Of a stretch of 59,977 nucleotides of DNA, positions 19,750-35,608 are shown one piece after another. The translations under genes and the position numbers were made by a program. The notes below the pieces were generated by a model that saw only the letters and a list, made by a program, of their open reading frames with translations, was not told the origin of the DNA and searched no databases. The number at the start of each line of letters is the position of its first letter. Position 1 is the first letter of the stretch. Source of the stretch: a virus (lineage: Duplodnaviria; Caudoviricetes); IMG/VR virus record IMGVR_UViG_3300047281_000067, positions 1-59,977 of that record. One strand, written 5' to 3'.

Positions 19750-19827
19750 TGGGGATTCGCCTAGCTTGGCCTAAGGCAACGGTCTTTGAAATCGTCATCA
19801 TTGGTTCGAATCCAATATCCCCTGCCA
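19750..19827 (+). tRNA. tRNA-Gln(UUG)
   Basis: cloverleaf, loop CTTTGAA, GTTCGAATC, CCA. Confidence 0.9.
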
Positions 19828-19831
19828 GTAT

Positions 19832-19892
19832 TAGGATCCGTTCAGCAAACTTAAAAAATTCAACTTGTAATTGAAAAATAAGGATCCTGTTA
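19832..19892 (+). ncRNA. Y-like RNA copy 1 with Thr(UGU) anticodon stem-loop
   Basis: aggatcc/ggatcct terminal helix + TTCAGCAA; ttcaa-CTTGTAA-ttgaa. Confidence 0.7.
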
Positions 19893-19897
19893 TATTC

Positions 19898-19972
19898 ACT
19901 CAGTTCGTCTATCGGTAAGGACGACAGCCTTTCAAGTTGTAAAGACGGGTTCGATTCCCGTACTGAGTACCA
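19898..19972 (+). tRNA. tRNA-Glu(UUC)
   Basis: cloverleaf, loop CTTTCAA, CCA. Confidence 0.92.
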
Positions 19973-19979
19973 ATCAAAC

Positions 19980-20054
19980 GCGCCATTAGTATAATGGATA
20001 ATATACGAGCCTACGAAGTTCGGGATGGTGGTTCGATTCCATCATGGCGCACCA
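19980..20054 (+). tRNA. tRNA-Arg(ACG)
   Basis: cloverleaf, loop CTACGAA, CCA. Confidence 0.9.
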
Positions 20055-20058
20055 GTTT

Positions 20059-20126
20059 TAGGATGCATCCTGCAAAATCAAATCAATTCAAAACTTTTAT
20101 CTTTGAAAAGAAACTGCATCCTGTTA
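20059..20126 (+). ncRNA. Y-like RNA copy 2 with Lys(UUU)-like stem-loop
   Basis: aggatgca/tgcatcct helix + CTGCAA; ttcaaa-aCTTTTATc-tttgaa. Confidence 0.65.
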
Positions 20127-20132
20127 TATAAT

Positions 20133-20206
20133 ATCCGCGTAGCACAAAAGTAGAGCGTCCGGCTGATAACCGGGAGACGAAGGAGCGTTACCTTCCGTGG
20201 ATACCA
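20133..20206 (+). tRNA. tRNA-Ile(GAU), atypical T loop
   Basis: loop CTGATAA; T loop AGCGTTA instead of TTCRANY; CCA. Confidence 0.75.
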
Positions 20207-20225
20207 ATCAATTAGACTACTTAGG

Positions 20226-20297
20226 TGTGGCCTTAGTGTAGCGGTAGCACCAGACACTGTGAATGTCTTAGTACGGGTTCGACCCCCGTAGGTCACC
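20226..20297 (+). tRNA. tRNA-His(GUG), no encoded CCA, embedded in an extended flanking stem
   Basis: loop CTGTGAA; flanks gactacttagg / cctaagtagtt pair. Confidence 0.85.
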
Positions 20298-20319
20298 CCT
20301 AAGTAGTTTGAAAAATAAA

Positions 20320-20395
20320 GCCCCGGTGATGGAATGGTATACATGCTTGTCTTAGAAACAAGATCCTAGGAGTTCGAGTCTCCTCTGGGGCACCA
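20320..20395 (+). tRNA. tRNA-Leu(UAG) with short variable loop
   Basis: loop CTTAGAA, 76 nt, CCA. Confidence 0.85.
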
Positions 20396-20404
20396 TCATT
20401 AATT

Positions 20405-20478
20405 GCTCTTATAGGTAAATGGAATACTGACACTTTGGTATAGTGTAGTTGGAAGTTCGATTCTTCCTAAGAGCACCA
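20405..20478 (+). tRNA. tRNA-Thr(GGU)
   Basis: loop TTGGTAT, CCA. Confidence 0.88.
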
Positions 20479-20487
20479 AGATAAGTA

Positions 20488-20552
20488 GTGACTATAGTTT
20501 AAGCGAACAAGTTTAAATGTACTAGGTGCAGGTGTCAAGCCCTGCTAGTTGC
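20488..20552 (+). pseudogene. degenerate tRNA-like element
   Basis: 7 bp acceptor gtgacta/tagttgc and T-like stem gcagg/cctgc; no clear anticodon arm or CCA. Confidence 0.4.
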
Positions 20553-20559
20553 GAACATT

Positions 20560-20634
20560 GGATGTATAGCACAGCGGTAGTGCATTCGCTTCATACGCGA
20601 CAGGTCAGTAGTTCAAATCTACTTACATCCACCA
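20560..20634 (+). tRNA. tRNA-CAU (Met or Ile2)
   Basis: loop TTCATAC, CCA. Confidence 0.87.
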
Positions 20635-20641
20635 AACATAT

Positions 20642-20715
20642 GCGACCATAGTTAAATGGTAGAATTAGACTTTGCCAAAGTCTGGACACGGGTTCGATTC
20701 CCGTTGGTCGCTCCA
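20642..20715 (+). tRNA. tRNA-Gly(GCC)
   Basis: loop TTGCCAA, U73, CCA. Confidence 0.92.
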
Positions 20716-20723
20716 ACTTATAA

Positions 20724-20797
20724 CTCCGATTGGTGAAATGGAATCACTCTTGGTTTGGGACCAAGGAGCGCAAGTTCGATTCTTGCATCGGAGACCA
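20724..20797 (+). tRNA. tRNA-Pro(UGG)
   Basis: loop TTTGGGA, CCA. Confidence 0.9.
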
Positions 20798-20808
20798 AGT
20801 TTTAAAAT

Positions 20809-20886
20809 GCCCCTGTGGACAAATTGGCAAAGTCGCTTCTCTCAAAAGGAAGAGTTCTCTCGGTTCAAGTCCGAGCAGGGGTACCA
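20809..20886 (+). tRNA. tRNA-Leu(CAA) with short variable loop
   Basis: loop CTCAAAA, 78 nt, CCA. Confidence 0.85.
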
Positions 20887-20891
20887 AGTTT

Positions 20892-21011
20892 CCCGTCTTA
20901 GTGTAGTGGTTAGCACACGTATAAAGGTCATCCTGTCAAGGATGCAGTCAGCAATATACAACATTCCATTCTAAGGACGAAACGGTGGTTCGAATCCATC
21001 AGACGGGGCCA
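20892..21011 (+). ncRNA. tRNA body whose anticodon arm is replaced by a circularly permuted Y-like module
   Basis: acceptor cccgtct/agacggg+GCCA, normal D and T arms; insert catcct-gtca-aggatg-cagTCAGCAA at 20929-20954. Confidence 0.7.
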
Positions 21012-21079
21012 ATTACGGTAGTCGGAGTCATGACCCTTTGCGTTTTCATGAGATGCAAAGCGAGCTACCACCAACAAAT

Positions 21080-21171
21080 GGAGAGTAATGCAGCGGGGAT
21101 GGTCCTGCGACTGGCCTTGAAAACCAGGTTCTCAGAAATGGGATGGGGTTCGACTCCTCTGCTCTCCGCCA
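21080..21171 (+). tRNA. tRNA-Ser(UGA) with 8/4 acceptor/T-stem fold
   Basis: ggagagta/tgctctcc 8 bp, gggg/cctc 4 bp T stem, long variable arm, G73, CCA. Confidence 0.75.
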
Positions 21172-21573
21172 AAATATCCTTAAGTTAAGCGGGGCTGTAT
21201 ACACCCTTGCCAATGTTAGTAACGTACTATGCGATGAGTACCTTAAGGGCCAAGTTATGTCATAGTGTAATGAGAATGCACGGGAGGCCCACATAAGTCT
21301 TTTTAAGTAGAGCGGTGGAATAACTTTCAGGTACGGTAAAAACCCGTAACGACAAACAAGTTTTGAGATAGACGTAGGAGTCGAGTCGCAAGTAGCGGTG
21401 CAGCAAGAGAAGCACGTGTTTAACGTGAAAGATGCAAGACCTCCTCCATACGAGACAAACTACTGAGTCCACTAACAAGGATAGGTAGCCTCTCAAAAAC
21501 CTACCACAAGAAGCATATCAAATTTGATTGATGCGTGAGATATTGATAAATAGATCATACAAAGGAAAATATC

Positions 21574-21876
21574 ATGACAACCCCAACCCCAACCCCAAAC
21601 TCAAACTCAAACCCAATGACAAAAACTACCACAATCACTTGGGGCTCGATAGCTGATCAGGAACATATTGGTATCGAACAAGCCAGGGATATAAAACTGA
21701 TAGAAATGTCAAAACTCGGCAAAACTGATGGCACCGCACTCAACATCAGCCCTGAATGTACACGCCGGTATTGGGCTGATTTGGCATCTGCTGAAGAATA
21801 TGCTACATTTATCAATGAAATCTCGCTATCCTTTAATATTGCACCTGCTTCGATTGTAATTGACGACATTGTATAA
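21574..21876 (+). CDS. hypothetical protein
   Basis: AAGGA RBS, 100 aa, low-complexity PT/NS N-terminus. Confidence 0.65.
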   Translation: MTTPTPTPNSNSNPMTKTTTITWGSIADQEHIGIEQARDIKLIEMSKLGKTDGTALNISPECTRRYWADLASAEEYATFINEISLSFNIAPASIVIDDIV

Positions 21877-21917
21877 CTCACTAGTTATATACATAGCATT
21901 AGATTGATAAAAAGTAA

Positions 21918-23351
21918 GTGGCAAATTTAATTTTATGGAACACATTAAATCACAATGTATTTTTAGTTAGACCAGTCGGTGCCCATCAAATTGCACAATG
22001 GTTGATAAAACACGGATACACGGTAAAGGTAATTGATTTTTGTAGTTCTATTTCTACTGATGATTTAGTTGAGATAACACGAAAATTTATTGATAACTCT
22101 ACTATTGCGGTGGGAGTTAGTTCTACATTTTGGAACCTGTTTGACCCGATTACAATAACATCTAGTTCTAGATATCCACAGGGTAATAAATTCACAGCAA
22201 TCGATCCAGACTGGGTTAACTCAGGTAGACGAAAAATTGAAAGCTTATATCCTGAATTAAAATGGTTATTGGGAGGGGCATCCTCACAAGCTATCAGTAT
22301 GCATGATTGGATAAAATTTCACGGTCATGCTGAGGATTCAATATTAAAATTTTTAGATGAAAAAAGTGGCAAAAATATCGCTAGGACACCATTTACAATA
22401 CAATCCATGGAGTGGTCATACGGTGAGGGATTAGGTATACTCCCTCATGAAGTATTGGGTATTGAACTTGGTCGCGGATGTCAATTTAAATGTGGATTTT
22501 GTAGATATCCTCTATTGGGTAAAAAGAAAAATTCTTATTTACGAAATTTTAACTTAGTCAAGCACGAATTAATCCAGAATTATGAAAAATTTGGTGTTAC
22601 ACGCTATTCATATTTAGACGATACAGTGAATGAAAGCTCTGAGAAAATAGAAATTATGGCTGATATCGCGCAGTCACTCCCGTTTAAATTAGAATGGGTA
22701 GGGTATGGTAGATTAGATTTAATTGGTTCAAATCGTCCATCGATACAAACTCTTAAAGATTCGGGGCTTCGTAGTATGTTTTTTGGTATAGAGACATTCC
22801 ACCCAACCGCAAGTAAAGCAATTGGAAAAGCTTGGAATGGTAAACACGGTAAAGAATTTTTGCTCGAACTCAAGGAAATATGGGGTAAAGAAATCAACTT
22901 TCATACTAACTTCATAGTTGGGCTCCCGGGCGAATCAGAAATTGATATAGATAATACAATTCAATGGTGTATTGATAATGATATCCCATCATGGAAGTTT
23001 GGCGCATTAAATATTTCAATTAGACAAGATTTACTGTTTAAGAGTGTATTTGATGAAAACTACGCAGAGTATGGGTATAAATTCACCAATCCATTGGATG
23101 ATTCTTATTGGGAAAATGAATACTGGAATGCTCAGACAGCAGTGGATAAGCAACTATCTGTTTCTCGTCAAAATAAGAATAGTCGCCCATCAGATTTCGC
23201 TTTAGCGAGTCTCGCTGGTCTTGGTTATTCAATAGATGAACTCATTAATACACCTCAGCACTCACTGCCATACGGTGATATGTTTAATAAGCGACAATCA
23301 CACATAGACCAATACGTTCATTATCAAAAAAATATTGCTAATGCGTACTAA
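21918..23351 (+). CDS. B12-binding radical SAM protein (class B-like)
   Basis: ELGRGCQFKCGFC CxxxCxxC, FGIET, FIVGLPGE; N-terminal Rossmann-like domain. Confidence 0.88.
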   Translation: MANLILWNTLNHNVFLVRPVGAHQIAQWLIKHGYTVKVIDFCSSISTDDLVEITRKFIDNSTIAVGVSSTFWNLFDPITITSSSRYPQGNKFTAIDPDWVNSGRRKIESLYPELKWLLGGASSQAISMHDWIKFHGHAEDSILKFLDEKSGKNIARTPFTIQSMEWSYGEGLGILPHEVLGIELGRGCQFKCGFCRYPLLGKKKNSYLRNFNLVKHELIQNYEKFGVTRYSYLDDTVNESSEKIEIMADIAQSLPFKLEWVGYGRLDLIGSNRPSIQTLKDSGLRSMFFGIETFHPTASKAIGKAWNGKHGKEFLLELKEIWGKEINFHTNFIVGLPGESEIDIDNTIQWCIDNDIPSWKFGALNISIRQDLLFKSVFDENYAEYGYKFTNPLDDSYWENEYWNAQTAVDKQLSVSRQNKNSRPSDFALASLAGLGYSIDELINTPQHSLPYGDMFNKRQSHIDQYVHYQKNIANAY

Positions 23352-23379
23352 GTCCTAGACAATTGAAAAAGTTAATAAC

Positions 23380-23454
23380 GGGTCTTTGGTGCAACGGATA
23401 GCATACGAGTCTTCGAAACTCATGACGCAAGTTCGATTCTTGCAGGACCCACCA
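23380..23454 (+). tRNA. tRNA-Arg(UCG)
   Basis: loop CTTCGAA, CCA. Confidence 0.9.
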
Positions 23455-23497
23455 AAACAATAGTTAAATACATATAACATAACCGCAGGAGAAAATC

Positions 23498-24058
23498 ATG
23501 TCCGTATTAGCACTAGATATCACAGGAGTTCCCAGACAGTGGATCTCTACTGATGACGCAATTACCTATCACGCAAAAAATGCAGTAGCATGGGCGCTAG
23601 GTGATATTGTGGCTAAATATCGTGGTGGTATACAAGAAGATGGTACACAGAGTTATCTGGAAACAACTAGTATTATTGCCATTAAAGGACACGGGTTCAA
23701 TCCGCACAAGCACGGCAAAGTGGTGCTGACTAACAAGACATTGTTTGGTCGCGATAGAAACGTATGTGCGTACTGCGGTAAACTATTTGCTAATCACTAT
23801 CATTTGTCTCGTGATCATATTCACCCTAAATTTAAAGGTGGAGAAAATACCTGGATGAATGTAGTTACATCTTGTAAAAGTTGTAACAGTGAAAAGGGAC
23901 ACAAGACGCTGAAAGAATTCGGCAAGGAACTGTTATATGCTCCGTATGTTCCCTCTCATTATGAAAATATGATTCTTCAACACAGGAACATTCTAGCTGA
24001 CCAAATGGAATATTTGTTATCAGGTGTTCCGAAAAATTCTAGAATCTGGTTAAATTAA
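23498..24058 (+). CDS. HNH endonuclease
   Basis: RDRNVCAYCG, SRDHIHP..GG, NVVTSCKSCNSEK. Confidence 0.9.
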   Translation: MSVLALDITGVPRQWISTDDAITYHAKNAVAWALGDIVAKYRGGIQEDGTQSYLETTSIIAIKGHGFNPHKHGKVVLTNKTLFGRDRNVCAYCGKLFANHYHLSRDHIHPKFKGGENTWMNVVTSCKSCNSEKGHKTLKEFGKELLYAPYVPSHYENMILQHRNILADQMEYLLSGVPKNSRIWLN

Positions 24059-24121
24059 ATTTCAATCATATTTACAAATGATAAATAACTATAGCAGCAA
24101 ATAACAACGCTGCTACCAATC

Positions 24122-24196
24122 GCCCGATTGGCTCAGGGGTAGAGCAACCGCCTTGTAAGCGGTAGGTCGTCTGTTCGAATCAGACATTGGGCACCA
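24122..24196 (+). tRNA. tRNA-Thr(UGU)
   Basis: loop CTTGTAA, CCA. Confidence 0.93.
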
Positions 24197-24203
24197 AATT
24201 TAT

Positions 24204-24278
24204 TCCCTAATAGCTCAGTGGTAGAGTAGTTGACTGTTAATCAATTGGTCCGTGGTTCGAGCCCACGTTGGGGAGCCA
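24204..24278 (+). tRNA. tRNA-Asn(GUU)
   Basis: loop CTGTTAA, GCCA. Confidence 0.95.
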
Positions 24279-24321
24279 AATATCTTAGTCAGCAATCGAA
24301 TATTATACACATAATACTATA

Positions 24322-25101
24322 ATGGATTCCGAATACACTATCAAAGAACTGTCTTACTTAAAAGCGAATCGATTATTGCCGCAAGTTCATAATACCCCCA
24401 GCCGGGTAGAAAAATTTTCGGGATATGATTCAGCTGGGTTATTTTCTGATAATTTACAAAAGCAAGATGCTTTGTGGAGATATAGGACCAAAGAAGTTAC
24501 TTATGTATTAAACGATCAATCATATCGTGCCCCGGAATGGAATTCTATTGATTGGAAAAATTCAGCGGTGATATTAGGTTGCTCTAATGTATTTGGGGTT
24601 GGATTAGCAGAAGATGAAACTATCAGTTATCAGTTATCATTATTGCTGAATCGGCCGGTTATCAATTTAGGTGTTGGTAGCTCCGGGATGTCTTTTGCAA
24701 TGCAAAATTCAGTTTTACTTAATAAAAACTTTCCTACTCCATGGGCTGTTATCAACATATGGTCGGATCCATTTCGCATTCATGAATTCATTGACAACAG
24801 ACTTATTTCACATTATACTGCTATGAGTTCTATATCAGGGAATTCTAACTTTAGTAAAAGTTGGGGTTCCTCAGAAATAAATCCAGAAATGTACAGTTAT
24901 TTTGCGTGTAAGGCTACTGAAGCAATTTGGTCATCAAAAACTAAATACTTGTCATACTCACATTGGGCTCCCCTAGACAGTAGTTCAATTAAAAGACTGC
25001 CCTTTATCCCCGGAGATTTGGCCCGAGATTTGGCTCACCCAGGATCAAAAATGGCTGTTGCGGTTGCAGAAGTCTTAGCTACAGCCCTAACAAAGACTTG
25101 A
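24322..25101 (+). CDS. SGNH-hydrolase-like protein
   Basis: LGCSNVFGVG, INLGVGSSG, C-terminal ARDLAHPG (DxxHP). Confidence 0.65.
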   Translation: MDSEYTIKELSYLKANRLLPQVHNTPSRVEKFSGYDSAGLFSDNLQKQDALWRYRTKEVTYVLNDQSYRAPEWNSIDWKNSAVILGCSNVFGVGLAEDETISYQLSLLLNRPVINLGVGSSGMSFAMQNSVLLNKNFPTPWAVINIWSDPFRIHEFIDNRLISHYTAMSSISGNSNFSKSWGSSEINPEMYSYFACKATEAIWSSKTKYLSYSHWAPLDSSSIKRLPFIPGDLARDLAHPGSKMAVAVAEVLATALTKT

Positions 25102-25455
25102 CATTAAATCGTTTCTTTGTTATAATAGATACAAGAAACAAAATTCTGGCGTTCGTATAATGGATAATACAGGGGATTTCTACTCCCTAAATAGCAGTTC
25201 GATTCTGTTACGCCGGACCAAATTAAAACACATTGTCCTAGGCTGTGACCTAGTCCATCAGAAGTCCAAAGAGACAGAAGCAGTGTGTTTTAATTTGGTT
25301 CTGTTGTTTAAATACAACGAGAAAAGAGTTGACATTAAAGCACAATGGTGCTATAATAGATACTTAGATTGATAGAAGACTTCTTTCAACAGGCTCTTAA
25401 AAGTTTGAAGAAAGTTAAAAAAGAAGTTGACAATTAATCAAAACGGTGTTATAAT
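25098..25455 (+). promoter_or_regulatory. three sigma70 promoters (-35 at 25098, 25329, 25427) with boxA-like elements downstream
   Basis: TTGACA-17-TATAAT three times; gctcttaaaa (~25393) and gttcattaaaaa (~25494). Confidence 0.8.
25146..25220 (+). tRNA. tRNA-Arg(UCU)
   Basis: loop TTTCTAC, CCA overlapping a conserved hairpin. Confidence 0.85.
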
Positions 25456-25875
25456 AGACACATAGCAACAAACGATAGAGTTAGTTGCGTAAAGTTCATT
25501 AAAAATTTACAAGTATAGATTTCTTGCTGAGACAACACTAAACGATTATGTAAAGTGATAACAGTCCGCAATGCTGTGAAGCAAAGCGTAGCGAGAAGTT
25601 ATATTAAAACATATTGTATCACAGGATCGTGCATTGGTAGTTCAAGCAGGGGAAATGATGTAGTGTGTTTCAATATAACAAAGAAGTTATAGTAAAACAT
25701 ACTACACCGTGGGGGCTACGAACCACATAAAATAAATAAGTAGGAAAAGTAGTATGTTTTACTATAAGTTATATTTCAGTATATTACTTGCCTGAGCGTA
25801 AAACTCGTGGTAAACTACAAAAGACAGAGGGTTCGAATCCCTGGGACTGGTAGTGTATTGAAATATAACACATAT

Positions 25876-25950
25876 GTACATGAGCCCGAAGATTGAGGGT
25901 GCTGACTGAAACTCAGTGAAAGGCGATTGAAATGATACCCATGTACGCCG
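25876..25950 (+). pseudogene. degenerate tRNA-Phe(GAA)-like element
   Basis: gtacatg/catgtac acceptor, gctga-CTGAAAC-tcagt arm; T arm degenerate; ends GCCG. Confidence 0.45.
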
Positions 25951-25955
25951 AATAT

Positions 25956-26040
25956 GGAGATGAAGCATCAATGGTGATGCAGTGGACTGTAAATCCGCCG
26001 CTTAACAGCACGCTTGGTTCGATCCCAAGAATCTCCACCA
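25956..26040 (+). tRNA. tRNA-Tyr(GUA)
   Basis: loop CTGTAAA, long variable arm, CCA. Confidence 0.9.
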
Positions 26041-26182
26041 AGAGCAGCGATGGGTTACATCATCAGTATGAGCAGCAAGGTACCTAGGTAAATCCTTGGG
26101 CGAGCAATAGTACAAACACAATGTAACAGGCGATAGTGATCTATCATGGGCGGAGTCCTCAAAACGCTGTCCACCAAATTTC

Positions 26183-26257
26183 GACGCATTCGTCTAATGG
26201 TTAGGACACCAGGTTTTCATCCTGGGAACAGCGGTTCAATTCCGCTATGCGTTACCA
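26183..26257 (+). tRNA. tRNA-Glu(UUC)
   Basis: loop TTTTCAT, CCA. Confidence 0.92.
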
Positions 26258-26259
26258 AG

Positions 26260-26920
26260 TTTAGTAGTCGGTCAGAAGGCTGATAATTTATGAGTTGAAG
26301 CTCATAAGCTACTTTTTTATTTCGGAGACTGAAACTTATTTTGGTGCAGCGGTTGCTGGAGGCGGCCTGTCTGTTCGAGGATAAGCGGATAAAGTGGACG
26401 GCATATAGGTAAGTGACTAGGCGAGGACGGTAACAGTCCTTTGCGCTGAAACCGACCGCCCGTATGTAGGCTGTCTCCATCTTTTACTAAGACAATACTG
26501 AGTAAGATGAGTATCAAGAATCAAGTGGAAAGCAAGAGCCACAAAGTAAACGCTAGTCATCCTGGTTCCTCGGTGACACAATGCAGTGATACACAGCAGA
26601 AAAAAAGCGGGGTAAGAGTCCCCACGTAGAGGATGCCACTAATACTAAGACAATACTGAGTAAGATGAGTAGATGGATACGAGCCGTAGGCGACTGCGGT
26701 CATCACAGCAATGTGACAAACGATAAGCAAAGTCGGTCCAGTAGGGGTATGAAAAGTATTGTTGGCGGTGATGTTGCTGAAGGACAGAAGCTTATGACTC
26801 CACGACACTCTGTGGTGATCACAGGCGCCGTGTAATCCTTCCCTAATTTTGCGGTAGCCCCGCAGACGACTCAGTACTTGGTCGTAACATCATGTACCCA
26901 TTAGGTGAGAAGCCTATCAT
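26260..26920 (+). ncRNA. candidate large structured ncRNA (unidentified)
   Basis: ~660 nt GC-elevated gap between tRNAs with no credible ORF; 29 nt direct repeat at 26485-26513 and 26643-26671. Confidence 0.45.
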
Positions 26921-26925
26921 TATTT

Positions 26926-27000
26926 GGGGGATTGGCGTAATTGGTAACGCAGTAGCTTTGCAAGCTTCAGTCAAGAGTTCGAATCTCTTATCCTCCACCA
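26926..27000 (+). tRNA. tRNA-Ala(UGC)
   Basis: G3-U70, loop TTTGCAA, CCA. Confidence 0.92.
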
Positions 27001-27006
27001 GAACAT

Positions 27007-27081
27007 ACTCAGTTCGACTATCGGTTAGGTCAGGATACTTTCAATTTCCAGAGAGGGGTTCGACTCCCCTACTGAGTACCA
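27007..27081 (+). tRNA. tRNA-Glu(UUC)
   Basis: loop CTTTCAA, CCA. Confidence 0.88.
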
Positions 27082-27089
27082 AGAATTTA

Positions 27090-27164
27090 GCGGCATTCAT
27101 ATAACGGTCATTATCTCGGATTGTCTATCCGAAGACGGGAGTTCGACTCTCCCATGTCGCGCCA
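27090..27164 (+). tRNA. tRNA-Asp(GUC)
   Basis: loop TTGTCTA, GCCA. Confidence 0.88.
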
Positions 27165-27171
27165 AGTTTAT

Positions 27172-27249
27172 CTGTGTGTGAGAAAGTCCGGTTAATCTAC
27201 TCGCCTTGGAAGTGAGAAATCGTAGGTTCGAATCCTACTACACAGACCA
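27172..27249 (+). tRNA. tRNA-Pro(UGG)
   Basis: loop CTTGGAA, CCA. Confidence 0.87.
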
Positions 27250-27254
27250 TATAT

Positions 27255-27329
27255 GCCGTAGTAGTCCTCGGGGAGGGCAACTGATTGTCTATCAGTACCA
27301 GGCGAGTTCGAGTCTCGTCTACGGCGCCA
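27255..27329 (+). tRNA. tRNA-Asp(GUC)
   Basis: loop TTGTCTA, GCCA. Confidence 0.87.
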
Positions 27330-27336
27330 AGTTTAT

Positions 27337-27412
27337 TCCTCAGTAGCTCAGTTGGTAGAGTACAGCACTGTTAATGCTGGTGTCAGTGGTTCGAGCCCAC
27401 TCTGAGGAGCCA
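27337..27412 (+). tRNA. tRNA-Asn(GUU)
   Basis: loop CTGTTAA, GCCA. Confidence 0.94.
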
Positions 27413-27480
27413 AGTTAAGTTGTTATAGTGAGTCGCTATGCGATAAACTTTAAGTAGAGATTATAACAACTCATTAGTTT

Positions 27481-27539
27481 TAGGATGCGTTCAGCAAATA
27501 AAAAAATTCAACTTTTAATTGAAAAATAAGCATCCTGTT
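27481..27539 (+). ncRNA. Y-like RNA copy 3 with Lys(UUU) anticodon stem-loop
   Basis: aggatgc/gcatcct helix + GTTCAGCAA; ttcaa-CTTTTAA-ttgaa. Confidence 0.72.
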
Positions 27540-27546
27540 GTATTAA

Positions 27547-27620
27547 GTCTCTCTGGTGTAATGGCAGCACCGCGGTCTCCAAAACCGTCAGTCTAGGTTC
27601 GAATCCTAGGGGGGGCGCCA
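27547..27620 (+). tRNA. tRNA-Trp(CCA)
   Basis: loop CTCCAAA, GCCA. Confidence 0.92.
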
Positions 27621-27677
27621 AGTATAAAAATAAAGAGTAAGTATACATGTACTAAATATGTGTATAGCAAAGAGTTT

Positions 27678-27754
27678 GCCCCTATAGCACAATTGGTTGG
27701 TGCGTTCGACTCATAATCGAGAGGCTACTGGTTCAAGTCCAGTTGGGGGCACCA
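27678..27754 (+). tRNA. tRNA-CAU (Ile2 or Met)
   Basis: loop CTCATAA, CCA. Confidence 0.9.
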
Positions 27755-27760
27755 AGTTAA

Positions 27761-27834
27761 GCGGGATTCGTAAAATGGCATTACCTTAGATTTCCAATCT
27801 AAAGTCAACAGTTCGATTCTGTTATCCCGCTCCA
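27761..27834 (+). tRNA. tRNA-Gly(UCC)
   Basis: loop TTTCCAA, U73, CCA. Confidence 0.9.
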
Positions 27835-27907
27835 GAGTTAAGATGTTACCCATTTGGGTTGATGTCAATGAATAAAAGTAGTATAATAACTACTAGTTAG
27901 AAACAAT

Positions 27908-27991
27908 GCGAGAGTGGTGGAACGGTATACACAGCAGACTTAAAATCTGCCGCCTAACAGCTTGCGGGTTCGAATCCCGCCTCTCGCACCA
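27908..27991 (+). tRNA. tRNA-Leu(UAA)
   Basis: loop CTTAAAA, long variable arm, CCA. Confidence 0.95.
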
Positions 27992-27997
27992 AGAATC

Positions 27998-28089
27998 GGA
28001 AGCGTGGCCGAGTGGCCGAAGGCAACTCCTTGCTAAGGAGTCGACCCCTTTAAACGGGTCCGTGAGTTCGAATCTCACCGCTTCCTCCA
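27998..28089 (+). tRNA. tRNA-Ser(GCU)
   Basis: loop TTGCTAA, long variable arm, CCA. Confidence 0.93.
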
Positions 28090-28121
28090 AACACTCACAA
28101 TCATTAACACAAGGAAACACA

Positions 28122-28286
28122 ATGAAACCCACAAAGACTTTCAAACTGACAAAACGTACAAAGACAATCATGGCTCTAATTGGCTTTGCCGATCAAAGCC
28201 AGCGCAATGCGTTCAAGAATATGATGGTTCAAGCGCAGTTGGCCAGTGAAGTACGACCAGCAAAAGATAAGTCAGATCGTAAGTAA
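28122..28286 (+). CDS. small basic hypothetical protein
   Basis: AAGGA RBS; MKPTKTFKLTKRTKT...; the longer track ORF runs through tRNAs. Confidence 0.65.
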   Translation: MKPTKTFKLTKRTKTIMALIGFADQSQRNAFKNMMVQAQLASEVRPAKDKSDRK

Positions 28287-28292
28287 ATAAAT

Positions 28293-28368
28293 GTACGTGT
28301 GTCCTGAATGGTTAGGGAGCGGATTGCAAATCCGTATTATGCAGGTTCGAGTCCTGTCACGTACTCCA
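28293..28368 (+). tRNA. tRNA-Cys(GCA)
   Basis: loop TTGCAAA, U73, CCA. Confidence 0.92.
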
Positions 28369-28375
28369 AATAAAC

Positions 28376-28451
28376 ACCAAGATAGCTCAGATGGTAGAGC
28401 AGTGGCCTGAAAAGTCATGTGTCGCAGGTTCGATCCCTGCTCTCGGTACCA
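28376..28451 (+). tRNA. tRNA-Phe(GAA)
   Basis: loop CTGAAAA, CCA. Confidence 0.93.
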
Positions 28452-28456
28452 AATAA

Positions 28457-28530
28457 GCCCTGTTAGTTAAGTGGTAGAACACGTGTTTTGTAATCACGGG
28501 ATGGCAGTTCGATTCTGTCACGGGGCACCA
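28457..28530 (+). tRNA. tRNA-Thr(UGU)
   Basis: loop TTTGTAA, CCA. Confidence 0.87.
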
Positions 28531-28727
28531 AGTTTTGAGAACCTGTAGCTTACTGCCTAGAGTAGTAAGTAACCGAAAGGGTAAGATAGAGCTATGTTAG
28601 ATACATAGGCAGGAATCTCGATTAAGTTTAGTAAGACACGCGGGTTGACCACAACGACACGCATCAAGGTAAGGTGTCTGAAGTGTAAGTAGCAGGTTTG
28701 GTCATGCTTACATACGAAAAAGTTTTT

Positions 28728-28801
28728 CTCGGTATAGTGAAATGGTATCACTCGACGTTTGGGACGTTGGAGCGTAGGTTCGATTCCTGCTACCGAGACC
28801 A
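28728..28801 (+). tRNA. tRNA-Pro(UGG)
   Basis: loop TTTGGGA, CCA overlapping a conserved hairpin. Confidence 0.9.
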
Positions 28802-29402
28802 TATTAAAACACACTAGTTCTTAGGGTTGTTCCGAAGATAATTATCTCCAATGGAGTCCTAGTATGTTTTAATATGGTAAATGTAGGCACCAACCTACTG
28901 CTAGGGTACGTCCCCGGTTTAATCTTTCTGAGCGATAAAGTAGCCGCTGTAAGCAATACACCTTCTCCGCACGAAATGGATGGTTACCATGGAAGGCGAA
29001 CGACTGAAAAAGAGAAAAAGCGAAAGAAAGTCAGAGATTGGTACTGACACCATATTGAAGTACATTGTGGAGAGCACTGTGTAGACTGAGAAGGTTTGAT
29101 TCCGACTCACTACATCACTCGGTATCCTGCGGCCGCAACAGTGTATTTCAATATGGTAATAACCAACAAGTTTTGTAAGTGTTAGCAAGAGAAAGTCACG
29201 CTATGTACTATTCTTCGAAGGTGGTACAGAAGTAAAAGGTCAAGTGGGTTCAACTCCCAGCCGCGCTCTTAAAGTGAAAGCGGCGCAGATTGGTTGCCGG
29301 TGCTGGACAAAGTATTCCAAGTAACATACCGCTCCCGTCCGGACTAGTTAAATCGGGAGAAGCGTTGAGATACAAGCGGCTCAACTACTTACAGATTCAA
29401 TT

Positions 29403-29463
29403 TAGGATGCCTACTGCAAACATAAAACTTTCACTGTAAATGAAAAAAATGTGCATCCTGTTA
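29403..29463 (+). ncRNA. Y-like RNA copy 4 with Tyr(GUA) anticodon stem-loop
   Basis: aggatgc/gcatcct helix + CTGCAA; tttca-CTGTAAA-tgaaa. Confidence 0.72.
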
Positions 29464-29475
29464 TATTATCGGTTT

Positions 29476-29596
29476 TAGGATACATTCAGCAACACTTAAT
29501 ATCAAGCAGTATGTCAGTGGTTCGAATCCACTCCGAGGCGAAAGCTAAGGTAGCTCAGTTGGTAGAGCAACAGCCAATAAAAAGCGTATCCTGTTA
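29476..29596 (+). ncRNA. Y-like RNA copy 5, YrlA-type permuted tRNA mimic
   Basis: aggatac/gtatcct helix + TTCAGCAA; T arm agtggTTCGAATccact, then GAAA-capped acceptor-like stem, then D arm tagctcagttggtagagc. Confidence 0.8.
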
Positions 29597-29601
29597 TATA
29601 A

Positions 29602-29676
29602 GCTCGTTTAGCACAGCGGTAGTGCGCTATCTCGACAAGATAGAGGTCAAAAGTTCAAATCTTTTAACGAGTACCA
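29602..29676 (+). tRNA. tRNA-Val(GAC), C33
   Basis: loop TCGACAA, CCA. Confidence 0.85.
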
Positions 29677-29694
29677 ATCAACATAAGGAATTAT

Positions 29695-29868
29695 ATGAGC
29701 AAAGGCGACCGCCCAAGAAAACCCACAATTCCATTAGTGGAATTTAATAGCAAACTAGATACGATCTTCGGTGTAAAGCCGCCGAAAGAGCGATGGGTTG
29801 CTCCTCCCCTCCCAGTAGATGAACCAGTTGTAAAGAAAAACATCTGGGCATCTGATAAAGAAGTTTAA
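29695..29868 (+). CDS. small hypothetical protein (MSKG..PR family)
   Basis: AAGGA RBS; MSKGDRPRKPTI..., similar to the ORF at 37141. Confidence 0.6.
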   Translation: MSKGDRPRKPTIPLVEFNSKLDTIFGVKPPKERWVAPPLPVDEPVVKKNIWASDKEV

Positions 29869-29968
29869 TAAAGAAAGACTATATGAAGCGAAGTTCAGCT
29901 AAACTATAGTGTCCCTTGGATCTCCGTATGGTCTAGGGTGGCACGTAAAAGAAAACTAATACGAACAC

Positions 29969-30043
29969 CCATGCTAAACTTTAGTGGTGAAGTAACCGGC
30001 TCTTAACCGGAGGAACAGAGTTCGAGTCTCTGAGCATGGACCA
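29969..30043 (+). tRNA. tRNA-Lys(CUU)
   Basis: loop CTCTTAA, CCA. Confidence 0.87.
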
Positions 30044-30045
30044 TA

Positions 30046-30120
30046 CGGGGTATAATTCAATGGTTAGAATAGTCGGCTTTTAACCGATCTATCACGGTTC
30101 GAGTCCGTGTGCCCCGACCA
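30046..30120 (+). tRNA. tRNA-Lys(UUU)
   Basis: loop CTTTTAA, CCA. Confidence 0.92.
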
Positions 30121-30228
30121 TAAGCAAGCACATTATTTAAAAAGGAACGCAAGTTCTAGGCATAGCCAATGGCATCGTAACGGTGGGTAGTGTGCTTACT
30201 TATGGTAACAACAAGATAAGAGAAAAAT

Positions 30229-30477
30229 ATGTTTAAAGTTTATTATACTGATCCAATCACTGATTCCTCTCATGCTCACAATGTTGCTTCATTGAATGAA
30301 GCACTACGCCATACAGAAGGGTTTCGCAAACTAGGCATGACCTTTGTTACTATGGTAGCAGAGGATCCAAATCAAGTTGGTAAGTCTGGCGTTGATTCAA
30401 TCGTAGATGGCAAGTGTCCGGACGGCGTTGCTTACGATTGGAATAAGTCCAGTCGCATTGGCGCAACAAGACGATAA
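30229..30477 (+). CDS. conserved hypothetical protein
   Basis: FVTMVAEDPNQVGKSGVD...YDW motif. Confidence 0.7.
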   Translation: MFKVYYTDPITDSSHAHNVASLNEALRHTEGFRKLGMTFVTMVAEDPNQVGKSGVDSIVDGKCPDGVAYDWNKSSRIGATRR

Positions 30478-30491
30478 CGATAAATAATTTC

Positions 30492-31835
30492 ATGCCTAAT
30501 AAAAATATATTTTGTTCTAGTCCATGGTTACATATTAAAATTGACTACGATGGAAGATTTGTTCCGTGTCGATGGCAGTCAACAATCAATCCTGAAGTTG
30601 ATTCTAGCAATTTACGCTCAATGAGTATCTTAGAATTTTACAATTCATCTAGAATGAACCAGTTTAGAAGCAATCTTTTAGAAGGTTCTGACCTAACTGA
30701 ATGTTCTTCATGTAAGTATGAAGATTCATTCGAAAAGGTAAGTGGTAGATTAAAACAGTTATATCGCAGTGGTATTGCTATCGAATCATTTGATCGAGAC
30801 TTTTCAAAAAGTCATCACTATGAATTGTTTAACTACAGTACTGATAACAATGGTCAAACTAATGCCTACCCGTACGATTTTCAAATTAATTTGAGTAATG
30901 TGTGTAATAGTGCTTGTATTATGTGTGCTCCGCATTTTAGTACTCGTCTAGTTCAAGATTATCAGAAACTATCAAAATTCGCCCCGGTATTATTTAAACA
31001 ACCAAAAAAAATTAATTGTTGGGCAGATGATCCTTCACTCGTCGAAAAATTTATACGTGATATTAAAGAATTACCGTACATTGATTATATACATTTGTTG
31101 GGCGGTGAAACTCTCTTATTAGAAAGTTTTTACACAATATGTGATGCATTGATTGAATCCGGACTATCAAAAACTATTTATTTAGGTACTACTACTAATT
31201 TAACAGTGTATTCACCTAAAATTGAAAATATTGTTACTAAGTTCTCTAAATTTCACTTAGGATTGAGTATTGAATCAGTTAATCCGTTGAATGATTATAT
31301 TAGATATCCGTCTAAGATCACTGGCATATTAGAAAATTTATCAAAATATTTATCCCTAAGAGATAAATATCCGGACAAACTACACATGTCATTGCGCATC
31401 ACTCCTAATATTTTTAGTATTTTTTATATTGATGAAGTTATACAATATATGTGTGATAATGACATAACTGGCGAAAGTTGTAATATATTGATTCGTCCTG
31501 AATGTTTGCGAATGGAATTAATGCCGGAAAATATACGATTGCTCACTATTGAAAAACTTAACGCAGTGATTAACAAAAATGAATTGTCTCGGGCCAAAGT
31601 AGTAAATATTCGAGACAATAATCTAACGCGAGAAGTGATTTCCACTATTGCGTTCACATACGTTGATTTCTTAGAAAATCTAGTTCTACCGTCGGACGGT
31701 GAAAAACAACGACATGATCTAGTAACATTCCTTCATGGATTTGAGTCTATAAGAGGAAATTCAATATTAGACTATGCCCCGGAGTATGAAACATTTCTAA
31801 AAGCATATGGTTATACGCGCCCACTTGACATTTAA
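30492..31835 (+). CDS. radical SAM protein with N-terminal twitch/SPASM-like domain
   Basis: FCSSPW..PC, ECSSC, CNSACIMC, LGGETLL, YIRYP. Confidence 0.88.
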   Translation: MPNKNIFCSSPWLHIKIDYDGRFVPCRWQSTINPEVDSSNLRSMSILEFYNSSRMNQFRSNLLEGSDLTECSSCKYEDSFEKVSGRLKQLYRSGIAIESFDRDFSKSHHYELFNYSTDNNGQTNAYPYDFQINLSNVCNSACIMCAPHFSTRLVQDYQKLSKFAPVLFKQPKKINCWADDPSLVEKFIRDIKELPYIDYIHLLGGETLLLESFYTICDALIESGLSKTIYLGTTTNLTVYSPKIENIVTKFSKFHLGLSIESVNPLNDYIRYPSKITGILENLSKYLSLRDKYPDKLHMSLRITPNIFSIFYIDEVIQYMCDNDITGESCNILIRPECLRMELMPENIRLLTIEKLNAVINKNELSRAKVVNIRDNNLTREVISTIAFTYVDFLENLVLPSDGEKQRHDLVTFLHGFESIRGNSILDYAPEYETFLKAYGYTRPLDI

Positions 31836-32203
31836 TGCGAATGCTGCTATAATAGACACATACGATAAGAAAGCAACTTCTAATCAGTTTGAAAGAACAG
31901 AAAAAGAGGTTGACATTTAATCAAAACGGTGTTATAATTAATACTTAGACAGCAGCAAGTGAGAAACAATGACAACTTCAACTAAAGTAATACAAGTTTG
32001 TAAAGAGAACAAAGTTCTTAAATTCATTACAACCCGTTTATTTGTAATCATTCTTGGGCTGTTGATTATCAGTAAAGGATTGGTTAATCCAACTAAAATG
32101 TTGGCTCAACTTGAAAATTCACTTGACAATTAATCAAAACGGTGTTATAATAGACACATAGCAGAAAATGATAGAGTTAACTGCTAAACGATCTTTAAAA
32201 AGT
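31825..32203 (+). promoter_or_regulatory. three sigma70 promoters (-35 at 31825, 31910, 32123) with boxA-like element
   Basis: TTGACA-17-TATAAT three times; 32123-32163 duplicates 25427-25467; gatctttaaaaa at ~32190. Confidence 0.8.
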
Positions 32204-32217
32204 TAGAAAATAATTTA

Positions 32218-32291
32218 CCCGGATAGCTCAGTGGTAGAGCAGTACCTTGATAAGGTATTGGTCGCAAGTTCAAATCTTGCTCCGGGTACCA
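32218..32291 (+). tRNA. tRNA-Ile(GAU)
   Basis: loop TTGATAA, CCA overlapping a conserved hairpin. Confidence 0.93.
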
Positions 32292-33631
32292 TATTGAAAT
32301 GCATTAGATACCTTTTAACATACGTTCGCCCGGCGCTCTTGTATGTTAGATACCTTTTAGTGTGTTTCAATATGGTAACAAAGGAGTAATTACCCTTAGC
32401 CAGAATCGGAATTGATCATCCGATAACCTCGCACTCTTCTAGTGGTCAGGAAGCCCTTTGGGAAACGTTGGTTCGATTCCAACATGCAATGAGGTTGCTA
32501 TATTAAAGTACATTCGATCAGCAACCGTTTCGCACTGCTTTCGGTCAATGTTTTAGTGAATGTACTTTAATATGGTAAGTTGATTGAATCGTGGTTAACT
32601 CCACCAGACCGAAACGTCTAGAGCGTGTCGAAGTAAGATTCCAGCTGCCATATTAAAACATATTTCGTGTTAGGGGTAAGCCGTATAACGTTTTCGGACA
32701 CGGGTCAAGTATGTTTCAATATGGTGATAGCTTAGTAGGAGAGTGCAGCGTTGTCGCGCTGCGGGCATAGGTGCAAATCCTGTTCACTGTTTAGGTTCCG
32801 GTGTAAGGTCATTCCTTACCGTAAACGTCAGCGTTAGGCGTGACATCCTTGAAGAGACAGGGGCCATATATAAACACACATAAGTGACTGGTTAGTCCCA
32901 GACTCCACGTGTAAGACTGGTATAAGTGTGTTTTTATATGGTGACCTCAAGTCCAAAGGAAGGAAAGGGCGTGTTTGAATGGACAAATTGCAGTTCCTTC
33001 TAGGGTCCGGCTTGTCAGCTTTGGGGCGGCGCACCATTCTATATTAAAACACATTGCCGAAGTTGGTTCGGTTAGACAGGGAGATCCAATTGCCCATGTC
33101 GTTAGTGTGTTTCAATATGGTATATCAGTTTTTAGTGAGTCATATACGGGACTGCCACTCGCGGGATACTGAGACTCGGAATCTCGGACACTAATTACAG
33201 AAGCAGTGCTAGGTGCATCTGGCATTGTTGATACACCATATTAAAATACATTAGAGAAGAAACTCCATATCACCCAGGGAAGGATATGGTTTGACGGCAC
33301 AGACTAGGAGGTGTAGCAATACATCGGCGATGCTTGCTAGTGTATTTTAATATGGTCCTTGTATAATCCACTGAAGTTTGATTTTTCTAGATACAGTTAA
33401 ACATAGGGTCTAGGTAGTTTAGGATTATCTGTTATATTTGAGGCATTAGATATAACGTGTTGTGGGTTCAAGGCCTACCAAGGATCACCATATTAAAGCA
33501 TACTCACCGACCATTTAAAATTGACACGGAGGTAAAGCTAGGTTTTGTCAATGCTACCTAGTGGAGTATGTTTTAATATGGTAAAGCAAATTGAGTTCAA
33601 TGGTCACACGCCCTTGCTCATTATGAAAGTT

Positions 33632-33752
33632 GCCATAGTTGAATACATTGTTTAGCTCAGTCGGTAGAGCGACCACTATTATACTAGTTACGTGGGGATA
33701 AATTGTCACAGAGCGCGGGTTCGAGTCCCGCAATAGTGTATTCAACTATGGT
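33632..33752 (+). ncRNA. tRNA-like RNA whose acceptor stem is the ~20 bp conserved hairpin
   Basis: D arm tagctcagtcggtagagc and T arm gcgggTTCGAGTcccgc stacked on gccatagttgaatacattgtt/aatagtgtattcaactatggt. Confidence 0.65.
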
Positions 33753-35068
33753 ATGTCACAGATGAAAATTATCATCCTTCGAAAGATGATTACAGTAATC
33801 TAAGATAAGCAGCGGAGCAATAGAGACTAGAGGGCTGCCGGCCCACCGTGCTCAGATGCTAACACGAGTAAATGCATGGAAAATGTTAGATGCTTGACAG
33901 ACCATATTAAAACACACAAAGGTAGTTGCAACTACTGATGTTGGTATAGCTCTTACTCGCAGAGTGAGCAAGCGGTTCGATTCCGCAGTGTGTTTTAATA
34001 TGGTATTCAAGTCGAGCGGGATTAAGTTCAGTCGGTGCGTAATAGCACAGAACATGTAGCTGGTAAATGGTGCAGGCAGTTGGTATAGTACCCAATAAGT
34101 AAAAACATTAGCCTGATTAAATAGCCCGTGGCGACCTACTTGGTATCATTTCAATAATTAGTCCCGCCAAGCCTACACGAACATTTCCCTAGTTTGTGTG
34201 GCTCAAACCGGTCGAGGTAGATGTAAGCTCTATCATTAAAAATGTACATACTACTGGCGCAGTGTGACAGGATTTCTAGCCCGAGGATTGTCGTCCAAGA
34301 AATGCGGAACAACAAGAGTGAAAACTTTTGCCGACTCAGAAGACACTGTGGAGATCATCTTAGGGGATGGTCGCCATAGTTGAATACATTGTCAAGTGCC
34401 TGACTGAAACGGGCGTCGAGTACGTAGAACGTGGGAAGAAGGTGCGGAAGAAGGTGCAAATCCTTCATACTCTATTTCAGACTTGCTAGTGTATTCAACT
34501 ATGGTTAGTATCAGAGGATGGGAACGAAACAGGGTTGCTAGTCACAATCAATGTCGTGAACGGGTGCTGAGAAGTTTCGAGAGCAGGCCTGACCGCTGGA
34601 GGGTAGAAACACCATATAAAAACATTTTTGACGGGGAAGGTGCTGCAACTAAAAGCGGTAATTACTTCGGTCCTCTGGTAGGGGCGAAACGTTCTTTGTA
34701 CCAGCATTGAACTAATATTGAAAATGTTTCTATATGGTCAGTTGAGAAGATTGGGTAATCTCTTAGACATTCAACTAAGAGGCCATATTAAAATACATTG
34801 ATTGTGATTTGCTTACGGAGCGACTCCGTTAGAATCCGTTAAACGATAAAAGCATAAAGGTTAAAGTCCTTTACGGTGTGTTTTAATATGGTGATAGTTT
34901 AATGATAGAACGGCGGGCACACAGGTTAAGACGCCTACTCGTATATGCAGGTTCAATTCCTTCTCACCATTTAGAAAATAGTTCCGGGTTTGTTTACCCC
35001 GCGGAGAACACGGCGGTTTTGTTGAGATTATAATCTCAACAACTCAGGGAGCCTAACGTAAACACACT

Positions 35069-35144
35069 GGAGCAGTAACATAGCGGCTAATGTATCTCCC
35101 TGTCTAGGAGACTATCGTGGGTTCGAGTCCCATCTGCTTCGCCA
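35069..35144 (+). tRNA. tRNA-Asp(GUC)
   Basis: loop CTGTCTA, GCCA. Confidence 0.9.
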
Positions 35145-35179
35145 ATTTTAAATTGTCATTAGTTATGAATGATAAATAA

Positions 35180-35515: not shown

Positions 35516-35520
35516 AATAA

Positions 35521-35608
35521 GGAAGATTGGCAGAGTGGCCGATTGCATCAGTCTTGAAAACTGAAGGCTCGAAAGGGTCCGAGAGTTCGAATCTCTCATC
35601 TTCCTCCA
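35521..35608 (+). tRNA. tRNA-Ser(UGA)
   Basis: loop CTTGAAA, long variable arm, CCA. Confidence 0.95.

Follow-up and report, generated by a model that had tools for sequence, protein, structure and literature searches.

A phage tRNA-Arg(UCU)-type gene with an extra arm in its anticodon stem, a putative docking handle for a Ro60-like protein

A gene embedded in a phage tRNA array is a tRNA-Arg(UCU)-type gene in which an additional 45-nt arm branches off the anticodon stem on its 5′ strand. A conserved RNA module lies in this arm, and comparison among phages suggests that this module is probably the recognition site of a Ro60-like protein encoded in the same window. The reading we favor, to which we assign a probability of roughly 55% from comparative sequence evidence, is that the RNA keeps the arm as a handle on which the Ro-like protein docks. 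The window, that is, the whole stretch of DNA analyzed (59,977 nt), is an entire IMG/VR virus record, a fragment rated 5% complete with a GC content of about 40%. More than 40 tRNA genes are densely arrayed on its + strand (19750–37112), and in this array the element starts 5 nt past the end of tRNA-Leu(CAA) at 20886. A complete relative, G001 (IMG/VR), is 222,825 bp long with terminal repeats, and the public runs containing this stretch are freshwater and aquatic metagenomes. The features discussed below are listed in Table 1.

Table 1. Positions of the handle-bearing tRNA, its parts, and the associated features in the window.
Feature	Position	Strand	Remarks
Whole handle-bearing tRNA	20892–21011	+	120 nt
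5′ part: acceptor 5′ strand, U8 A9, D arm GTGT/AGTGGTTA/GCAC, A26, anticodon-stem nt 27–29 (CGT)	20892–20920	+	
45-nt insert at nt 29/30: A-rich linker ATAAAGGT, hairpin P1, CAG, TCAGCAAT, linker ATACAACATT	20921–20965	+	
P1 hairpin CATCCT-GTCA-AGGATG	20929–20944	+	Three distal pairs invariant, three proximal pairs covary
Conserved single-stranded motif TCAGCAAT	20948–20955	+	In relatives: T/A-C-A/T-GCAA
TATAC, can pair with GTATA (20919–20923) as arm base helix P0	20955–20959	+	Competes with top two anticodon-stem pairs
Rest of anticodon arm: CC, loop ATTCTAA (anticodon TCT 20970–20972), GGACG	20966–20979	+	
Variable loop AAAC, T arm, acceptor 3′ strand, G73, CCA	20980–21011	+	
Circularly permuted relative	29477–29592	+	Two ends form P1; acceptor-like stem closed by GAAA
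Opened module in the leader of the presumed partner gene: AGGTTA 42028–42033, TTCAGCAA 42037–42044, TAACCT-GTT 42084–42092	42028–42092	+	Followed by AAAGAAAGAG ribosome site and ATG 42109
Presumed partner protein	42109–43524	+	Pfam DUF2828 and DUF7788; modeled Ro60-like fold (helical ring and vWA domain)

The preliminary description reported a normal acceptor stem, G73, CCA, and D and T arms, and the sequence confirmed all of these. CCCGTCT (20892–20898) pairs with AGACGGG (21001–21007) in a 7-bp acceptor stem, followed by G73 (21008) and an encoded CCA (21009–21011); the T arm is GGTGG-TTCGAAT-CCATC; and by sequence the bases of the tertiary contacts are in place (U8, A14, G18 G19, A21, G15/C48, and the T-loop TTCGAAT). 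Thus, the body shows the acceptor length, discriminator base, CCA, and D and T arms of an RF00005 tRNA. A contiguous anticodon arm and a score of at least 29 bits were not found, and over 20892–21011 no Rfam tRNA match was obtained at the gathering score or at E ≤ 10; no Rfam family of any kind matched the element, even at E ≤ 10. None of the 40 default ARAGORN calls overlapped the element. With introns allowed, ARAGORN called it ‘tRNA-Ala(agc)’ with a 24-nt intron, an assignment with the wrong anticodon that conflicts with the comparative data.

The anticodon arm had been described as replaced by about 60 nt. However, we found that the arm is complete and only interrupted, running from CGT (20918–20920) through the 45-nt insert to CC ATTCTAA GGACG (20966–20979). 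When the insert was set aside, the anticodon stem formed 5 of 5 pairs and closed a 7-nt loop with U33, the anticodon UCU, and A37 A38, at the canonical distance from the T stem. Related elements were scored with a split-anticodon-arm test, in which a pass denotes a perfect split stem, U33, a purine at position 37, and the canonical distance from the T stem. Ten of 13 distinct elements passed, compared with 0 of 364 slid anchors and 23 of 2600 shuffles. The three failures were phi-Grn1 t0029, phi-Grn1 t0028 (A33), and L180; by eye, the arm of t0029 reads as Trp CCA, and its variable loop is 3 nt long.

The insert contains the internal motif CATCCT-GTCA-AGGATG-CAG-TCAGCAAT at 20929–20955. It proved to be a conserved family motif. 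Eight inserts could be aligned without gaps over 35 nt as an A-rich lead (AAACG/AAAGGT), a 6-bp hairpin, three bases, and T-C/G-A/T-GCA-A/T; in all eight, the loop-side pairs of P1 are C-G and U-A, and most have a 4-nt loop of the G..A type. The helices of the 16 related elements (acceptor, D, anticodon, T, and insert) were 95.3% paired, compared with 35–48% when the partners were slid, and double-sided changes were detected at 21 of 27 pairs; none of 500 shuffles matched the observed values. The alternative of a hairpin mimicking an anticodon stem with a 7-nt loop was rejected because only the 6-bp/4-nt register pairs.

The helix at the base of the arm, P0, was paired in 84% of cells in the element’s own lineage, where three of its six pairs showed double changes (11 sequences). 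P0 was rejected as a general closing helix, as it is found in this lineage only and by eye is not general. The cloverleaf with the split anticodon stem and P1 was computed at −27.5 kcal/mol, compared with −32.2 kcal/mol for the minimum-free-energy fold of the single sequence, a value that is unremarkable alone (z = −2.16; 6 of 200 shuffles were as stable). As the latter fold uses the GTATA/TATAC helix, which is paired in the element’s lineage, the arm’s base helix and the upper pairs of the anticodon stem may form in alternation.

To the covariance model of the 35-nt module, the window presented exactly one strong copy (42.4 bits). Two copies were found in Synechococcus phage BUCT-ZZ01, five in Vibrio phage phi-Grn1, two in Cronobacter phage S13, and two in G001; none was found in a FelixO1-like phage, between whose tRNAs opened modules were recognized by eye. 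BLASTN with the element returned 40 phage records, of which 34 covered at least 80% of it, namely 33 KVP40-type Vibrio phages and BUCT-ZZ01. The latter carries two tandem elements with different tRNA bodies (anticodons CAU and GUU) and an identical module. In GenBank such genes, 113–122 nt long, are labeled tRNA-Cys, -Phe, -Asn, -Val, or -Ser, tRNA-OTHER, or pseudo. A pattern scan of viral contigs gave 114 loci, mostly by chance, among which inspection left only L052, L088, and L089 as family members. The insert lies between positions 26/27 and 29/30 in nearly all elements; in phi-Grn1 t0028 it lies within the anticodon loop, after a contiguous 5-bp stem, and in phi-Grn1 t0027 it lies, by eye, at 38/39.

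The closest relatives of the element (L204/L207, L217, L218, L220, and L224) match it in body, insert, and stem (CGT..CC/GGACG). In the loop they have ATGTCAA (GUC) and the window has ATTCTAA (UCU), so that U33 and A37 A38 are kept and no anticodon base is shared; among the freshwater members, GUC occurs more often than any other anticodon. A frame kept around a switched anticodon, together with the frequency of GUC, suggests that the anticodon loop is under some selection other than simple decoding, and a role as a bait or sensor for anticodon-directed nucleases would fit this pattern. Four relatives have 8-nt anticodon loops (ACTCTAAA, ATTCATAA), which are unusual for decoding tRNAs (L180:3244–3363, L212:564–682, L214:7629–7747, and L223:2314–2435).

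Several other features were observed near the element. Between it and the next tRNA-like gene, 21017–21073 (+) may encode a mini-helix RNA, with a GGTAGT/GCTACC pair followed by ACCA and an inner hairpin CTTTGC/GCAAAG; a comparable mini form in L052 (about 4899–4954) consists only of an acceptor-type stem, the module, and GCCA. The next gene, at 21080–21167 (+), is tRNA-like with a long variable arm and the loop CTTGAAAA; it was missed by ARAGORN and scored 34.9 bits with Rfam tRNA-Sec, under the cut-off of 47. Stretches of about 90 nt with 78–89% identity to it, most of them unannotated, occur in Pseudomonas phage PHB09 and in 36 Mycobacterium phage records; several of these mycobacteriophages (e.g., Gardann and Miley16) also encode a DUF2828 protein. 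The tRNA array also contains genes for two radical-SAM proteins, one of them with a SPASM domain, and for an HNH endonuclease (21918–23351, 23498–24058, and 30492–31835, +). In addition, one RNA-library contig of run X18 (depth 46.8) passes from 20396 to 21080 across five other letters, and a related strain therefore appears to lack the 683-nt block that holds the element.

The module also occurs in the window in forms opened at the hairpin loop. At 29477–29592, AGGATAC (29477–29483) pairs with GTATCCT (29586–29592), and TTCAGCAA follows the first strand. The acceptor-like stem of this RNA forms 5 of 7 pairs by reading, and its anticodon arm is not clean by inspection; the Rfam YrlA model gave a weak match to its tRNA-like core (29509–29571; 27.6 bits compared with a cut-off of 69). 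The preliminary description regarded this RNA, placed at 29476, as the topological mirror of the element. As a topology this is correct, since the motif recurs with P1 formed from distant strands, and the D arm, ATCCTGT, AGGAT, TCAGCAA, T arm, and acceptor follow one another in the same circular order. Opened modules also bracket three spacer RNAs that end at tRNA 5′ ends (19833–19897, 20060–20132, and 27482–27546, +), an RNA of about 130 nt (41888–42018), and an RNA of about 245 nt (40809–41051; AGGATGA and TCATCCT-GTT). In the window, the opened-form pattern matched six times on the + strand and once on the − strand.

Each of the spacer RNAs encloses a small hairpin, and ATCCTGTTATAT (or TTGTAT) ends within a few bases of the next tRNA; RNase P cleavage at these tRNA 5′ ends would make the 3′ ends of the spacer RNAs. 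In the stretch 40809–41059 (+), the ~245-nt RNA stops 5 nt short of the start codon (ATG) of an unrelated R2K ATP-grasp gene (41060–41857). Its 3′ part (..ggggacagtgcgaccagaaaataaaataacgg..) is similar to a conserved block that lies ahead of the DUF2828 leader in many related loci.

To the protein encoded at 42109, Pfam assigned DUF7788 (7.9e-47) and DUF2828 (1.1e-27), and no TROVE domain. A model generated by AlphaFold from a 90-sequence alignment reached a pLDDT of 92.4 and a pTM of 0.91, compared with a pLDDT of only 39 for the single-sequence model, and confidently predicts a Ro60-like fold with a ring of helical repeats and a vWA domain. All of the top 13 Foldseek matches in the PDB were Ro60/TROVE structures (E 2.4e-8 to 5.3e-6, query-normalized TM 0.39–0.63, about 500–550 columns), and the phiLo Ro60 structures 9kop and 9l5y were among the best. 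A profile search against PDB sequences gave a weak Ro60 match (E 0.015), and the sequence-only PDB search gave nothing relevant. The term Ro-like is therefore justified by fold and not by Pfam family. Homologues of DUF2828/DUF7788 were detected in 706 of 50,697 phage records, including FelixO1-like, KVP40-like, P100-like, and mycobacterial phages, where they are annotated only as ‘RNA-binding’ or ‘Ro-like’ protein. One homologue, in Pectobacterium phage CBB (KU574722.1, 102800–104236), is labeled ‘structural protein’, which raises the question of whether protein and RNAs are packaged in virions.

Several comparisons connect the RNA with this protein. The cyanophage, KVP40-like vibriophages, Cronobacter phage S13, and freshwater jumbo phages whose tRNA bodies carry the module all encode a DUF2828/DUF7788 protein. 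Among the records found via the RNA motif alone, 6 of 8 encode the protein, and the two misses are fragments 13% and 16% complete. In BUCT-ZZ01, a 48%-identical protein is encoded directly upstream of the two handle tRNAs, and in Cronobacter phage S13 the two handle tRNAs lie directly downstream of the protein gene. In 80 protein-anchored IMG/VR loci (1.01 Mb), 11 carried a module at E ≤ 0.012, all upstream and on the protein’s strand; of the three weakest matches (E ≥ 0.21), two were on the other strand.

The leader of the protein gene was then compared among relatives. The pattern consisted of the AG-helix strand, 2–4 nt, N-CAGCA, a gap of 10–85 nt, and the complementary strand ending in C-T/C-C, followed by G. 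It was applied to 55 distinct relatives, counting the window, for which 130 nt or more of sequence ahead of the gene was available. An opened module, with a perfect 6-bp helix and then G, was present in 45 of the 55 leaders, absent from the other 10, and seen in 0 of 2750 shuffles. The helix occurs in seven versions, including GGGATA/TATCCC beside AGGATA/TATCCT, and its 3′ strand lies directly before the ribosome site; in phi-Grn1, by eye, the helix includes the start codon. The UCAGCAA strand is absent from the leaders of S13 and of a FelixO1-like phage. A leader with the opened module placed in this way is what one would expect if the gene’s own product bound it as a translational operator, as in the autoregulation of RNA-binding proteins. 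The position of the module against the ribosome-binding site points to translational self-repression of the Ro-like gene when free protein exceeds its RNA partners. The tie between motif and 42109 protein that the preliminary description proposed is thus supported by the co-occurrence of RNA and protein in distant phages, by the opened motif in the leaders, and by the Ro60 fold, and may well reflect direct recognition.

Under the docking-handle reading, the element would be co-transcribed with the neighboring tRNAs. Its normal acceptor stem and encoded CCA make excision by tRNA-processing enzymes probable, and its place in a tight tRNA array, like the CCA, would fit RNase P or tRNA-type processing. 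The arm would present the 6-bp hairpin with its distal C-U/A-G and, three bases on, UCAGCAA, and on the comparative evidence this module would dock the phage’s Ro60-like protein; opened at the hairpin loop, the same module would form the closing stem of several Y-RNA-like transcripts in the window. The mature RNA would join a tRNA body with its anticodon loop intact to a ring protein. Such a link might tether the protein to tRNA-handling factors or offer a bait to anticodon-directed nucleases. Given the contacts between tRNA and ribosome, an arm within the anticodon stem should block ribosome use, which leaves the conserved anticodon loop unexplained.

The strongest competitor, which we nevertheless consider unlikely, is that the insert represents a novel type of small tRNA intron. 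The module would tag it for removal by a nuclease of the host or the phage, perhaps directed by the Ro-like protein, and ligation would yield a normal tRNA-Arg(UCU). The restored canonical anticodon arm in 10 of 13 elements is how an intron would look, and the compensatory anticodon-stem changes between lineages (CGTCC/GGACG compared with CTTCC/GGAAG) and the pairing of the insert with exon nt 28–29 in the element’s own lineage speak in the same direction. Archaeal tRNA introns occupy non-canonical, varying positions, including the anticodon stem region, leave a canonical tRNA after removal, and are marked by a bulge-helix-bulge. The insert resembles them in being short, in lying at varying positions in the anticodon stem region, and in leaving a canonical tRNA if removed. 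However, no bulge-helix-bulge (two 3-nt bulges and a 4-bp helix) was seen at the junctions by inspection, and the tRNA splicing endonuclease (PF01974) and RtcB were each found in 0 of 5 phage records, in a search whose positive controls responded (PF01974 in 4 archaea); to our knowledge, bacterial hosts lack a tRNA splicing endonuclease. A group I intron is contradicted by size (45 nt, compared with a core of about 200 nt or more) and by the lack of an Rfam match.

Further observations disagree with removal of the arm. In the RNA libraries of two studies, contigs cover the element in unspliced form (a 527-nt contig over 20825–21173 and a 159-nt contig over 20869–21026), and among the contig joints listed none lies inside 20892–21011. 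As some bins were uncovered in the RNA runs, and such contigs may derive from DNA, lose rare forms, and represent mature tRNA poorly, these contigs and the lack of an internal joint favor retention weakly. The module is also used outside tRNAs, by permuted, spacer, and mini-helix RNAs, none of which can be an intron. The decoding capacity appears redundant, since a canonical tRNA-Arg(UCU) lies elsewhere in the window (25146–25220) and a canonical Met-CAU lies beside the BUCT-ZZ01 element. The 8-nt anticodon loops of several relatives also count against an intron, and no insert-less orthologue was found among 25 loci that share the 5′ part.

A combination of the two ideas, which we hold to be quite improbable, is that the genes are caged, conditional tRNAs and represent a new class of protein-guided tRNA introns, in which the Ro60-like protein on the module blocks or directs removal of the arm and thereby releases decoding tRNAs or anticodon-loop baits on demand. 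If so, the GUC-to-UCU switch between close relatives would retarget the device. It is likewise doubtful that a factor other than the DUF2828 protein reads the module, such as an endoribonuclease that uses the helix and UCAGCAA as a processing or stability signal in the tRNA array, the link to the Ro-like protein being only positional. Opened modules directly flanking tRNA 5′ ends (19833–19897, 20060–20132, and 27482–27546), a module preceding the ATP-grasp gene at 41060, and the 10 of 55 leaders without a module would agree with such a factor. However, DUF2828 occurs in 6 of 8 RNA-first records against the base rate of 706 in 50,697, the leader helix abuts the ribosome site or start codon of the protein gene in two distant lineages, and no other conserved partner was seen; R2K ATP-grasp was found in 0 of 5 genomes as a conserved partner, in a search whose controls likewise found nothing.

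It is very improbable that the element is a decaying, functionless pseudo-tRNA hit by a small selfish insertion. Rejection by standard tRNA finders, odd loops in some relatives, one annotated pseudogene, and an identical module on two tRNA bodies of one genome would suit decay. In opposition to this, all arms covary and remain paired, all orthologues found that share the acceptor retain the insert (6 of 6 contexts, out of 17 from 25 loci), and the family spans cyanophages, vibriophages, enterobacterial phages, and freshwater phages. Finally, action of the motif as DNA, as a promoter or terminator, for which TGTTATAT after ATCCTG resembles an extended −10 element and ATCCTGTTATAT recurs upstream of tRNAs, has a negligible chance of being correct: a promoter at ATCCTGTTATAT was rejected because of its spacing, with copies ending 2–10 nt ahead of the 5′ ends of mature tRNAs and so too near for a start site, and because the helix halves covary as RNA pairs, while the closed form lies inside a tRNA and the opened pattern is strand-specific.

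The docking-handle architecture was compared with known systems. In the red alga Cyanidioschyzon, tRNA genes are circularly permuted. The window likewise holds normal-order and permuted forms of the same architecture; the cases differ in that there is no evidence of circular intermediates here and the acceptor of 29477–29592 is imperfect. Phage T4 rnaC and rnaD are stable RNAs of unknown function, tRNA-sized to 140 nt, that lie beside phage tRNAs and have tRNA-like 3′ parts. They were rejected as relatives, since neither the module nor DUF2828 was found: T4 gave no DUF2828 match, no module match in the tRNA/rnaC/rnaD stretch, and, in the 8-kb locus, a single module match of 16.8 bits inside a protein gene.

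The element is not a YrlA RNA (RF02553): no match was obtained at E ≤ 10 (the cut-off is 69 bits), its ends form the acceptor stem, its handle is internal, its motif is different, and no GNCGAA stands at the expected position. According to Chen et al. (2014; PMC4201824), YrlA has the motif GNCGAAN0-1G and a Ro-binding stem built from its 5′ and 3′ ends. The phage system is similar to Ro60/YrlA in combining a ring-shaped Ro60-fold protein with small RNAs that have a tRNA-like body and a protein-binding helix, and in encoding several such RNAs per genome on the protein’s strand. It differs in motif, a CU/AG-ended helix with UCAGCAA instead of GNCGAAN0-1G, and in topology, as a closed handle sits in a complete tRNA with a free CCA and an anticodon loop, whereas YrlA has an open-ended handle and a closed acceptor. 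The phage protein, unlike Ro60, is classified in Pfam as DUF2828/DUF7788 and not as TROVE. Thermus phage phiLo (PMC12135203) also pairs a phage Ro60-fold protein with phage partner RNAs near its gene, but its Yrl1 and Yrl2 are stem-bulge-stem Y RNAs with a CGAA motif and not tRNAs with an inserted arm. In the literature searched, supplements excluded, no description of an RNA partner of DUF2828/DUF7788 or of such tRNAs was found; some of the phages considered here might be among the phage YrlA candidates in the supplement of Chen et al. (2014).

If the arm is retained, complete tRNAs with CCA and an anticodon loop would be coupled to a Ro-type ring, a new topology for Ro/Y-RNA systems, and a new role would follow for ‘odd’ long tRNA genes that are labeled tRNA-OTHER or pseudo or carry wrong anticodons. 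If the arm is removed, the elements would represent a new intron class in bacterial viruses. As several cultured phages carry the system, direct testing is feasible either way. The DUF2828/DUF7788 protein, common in phages, would in turn gain a concrete, testable RNA recognition motif and a natural set of ligands.
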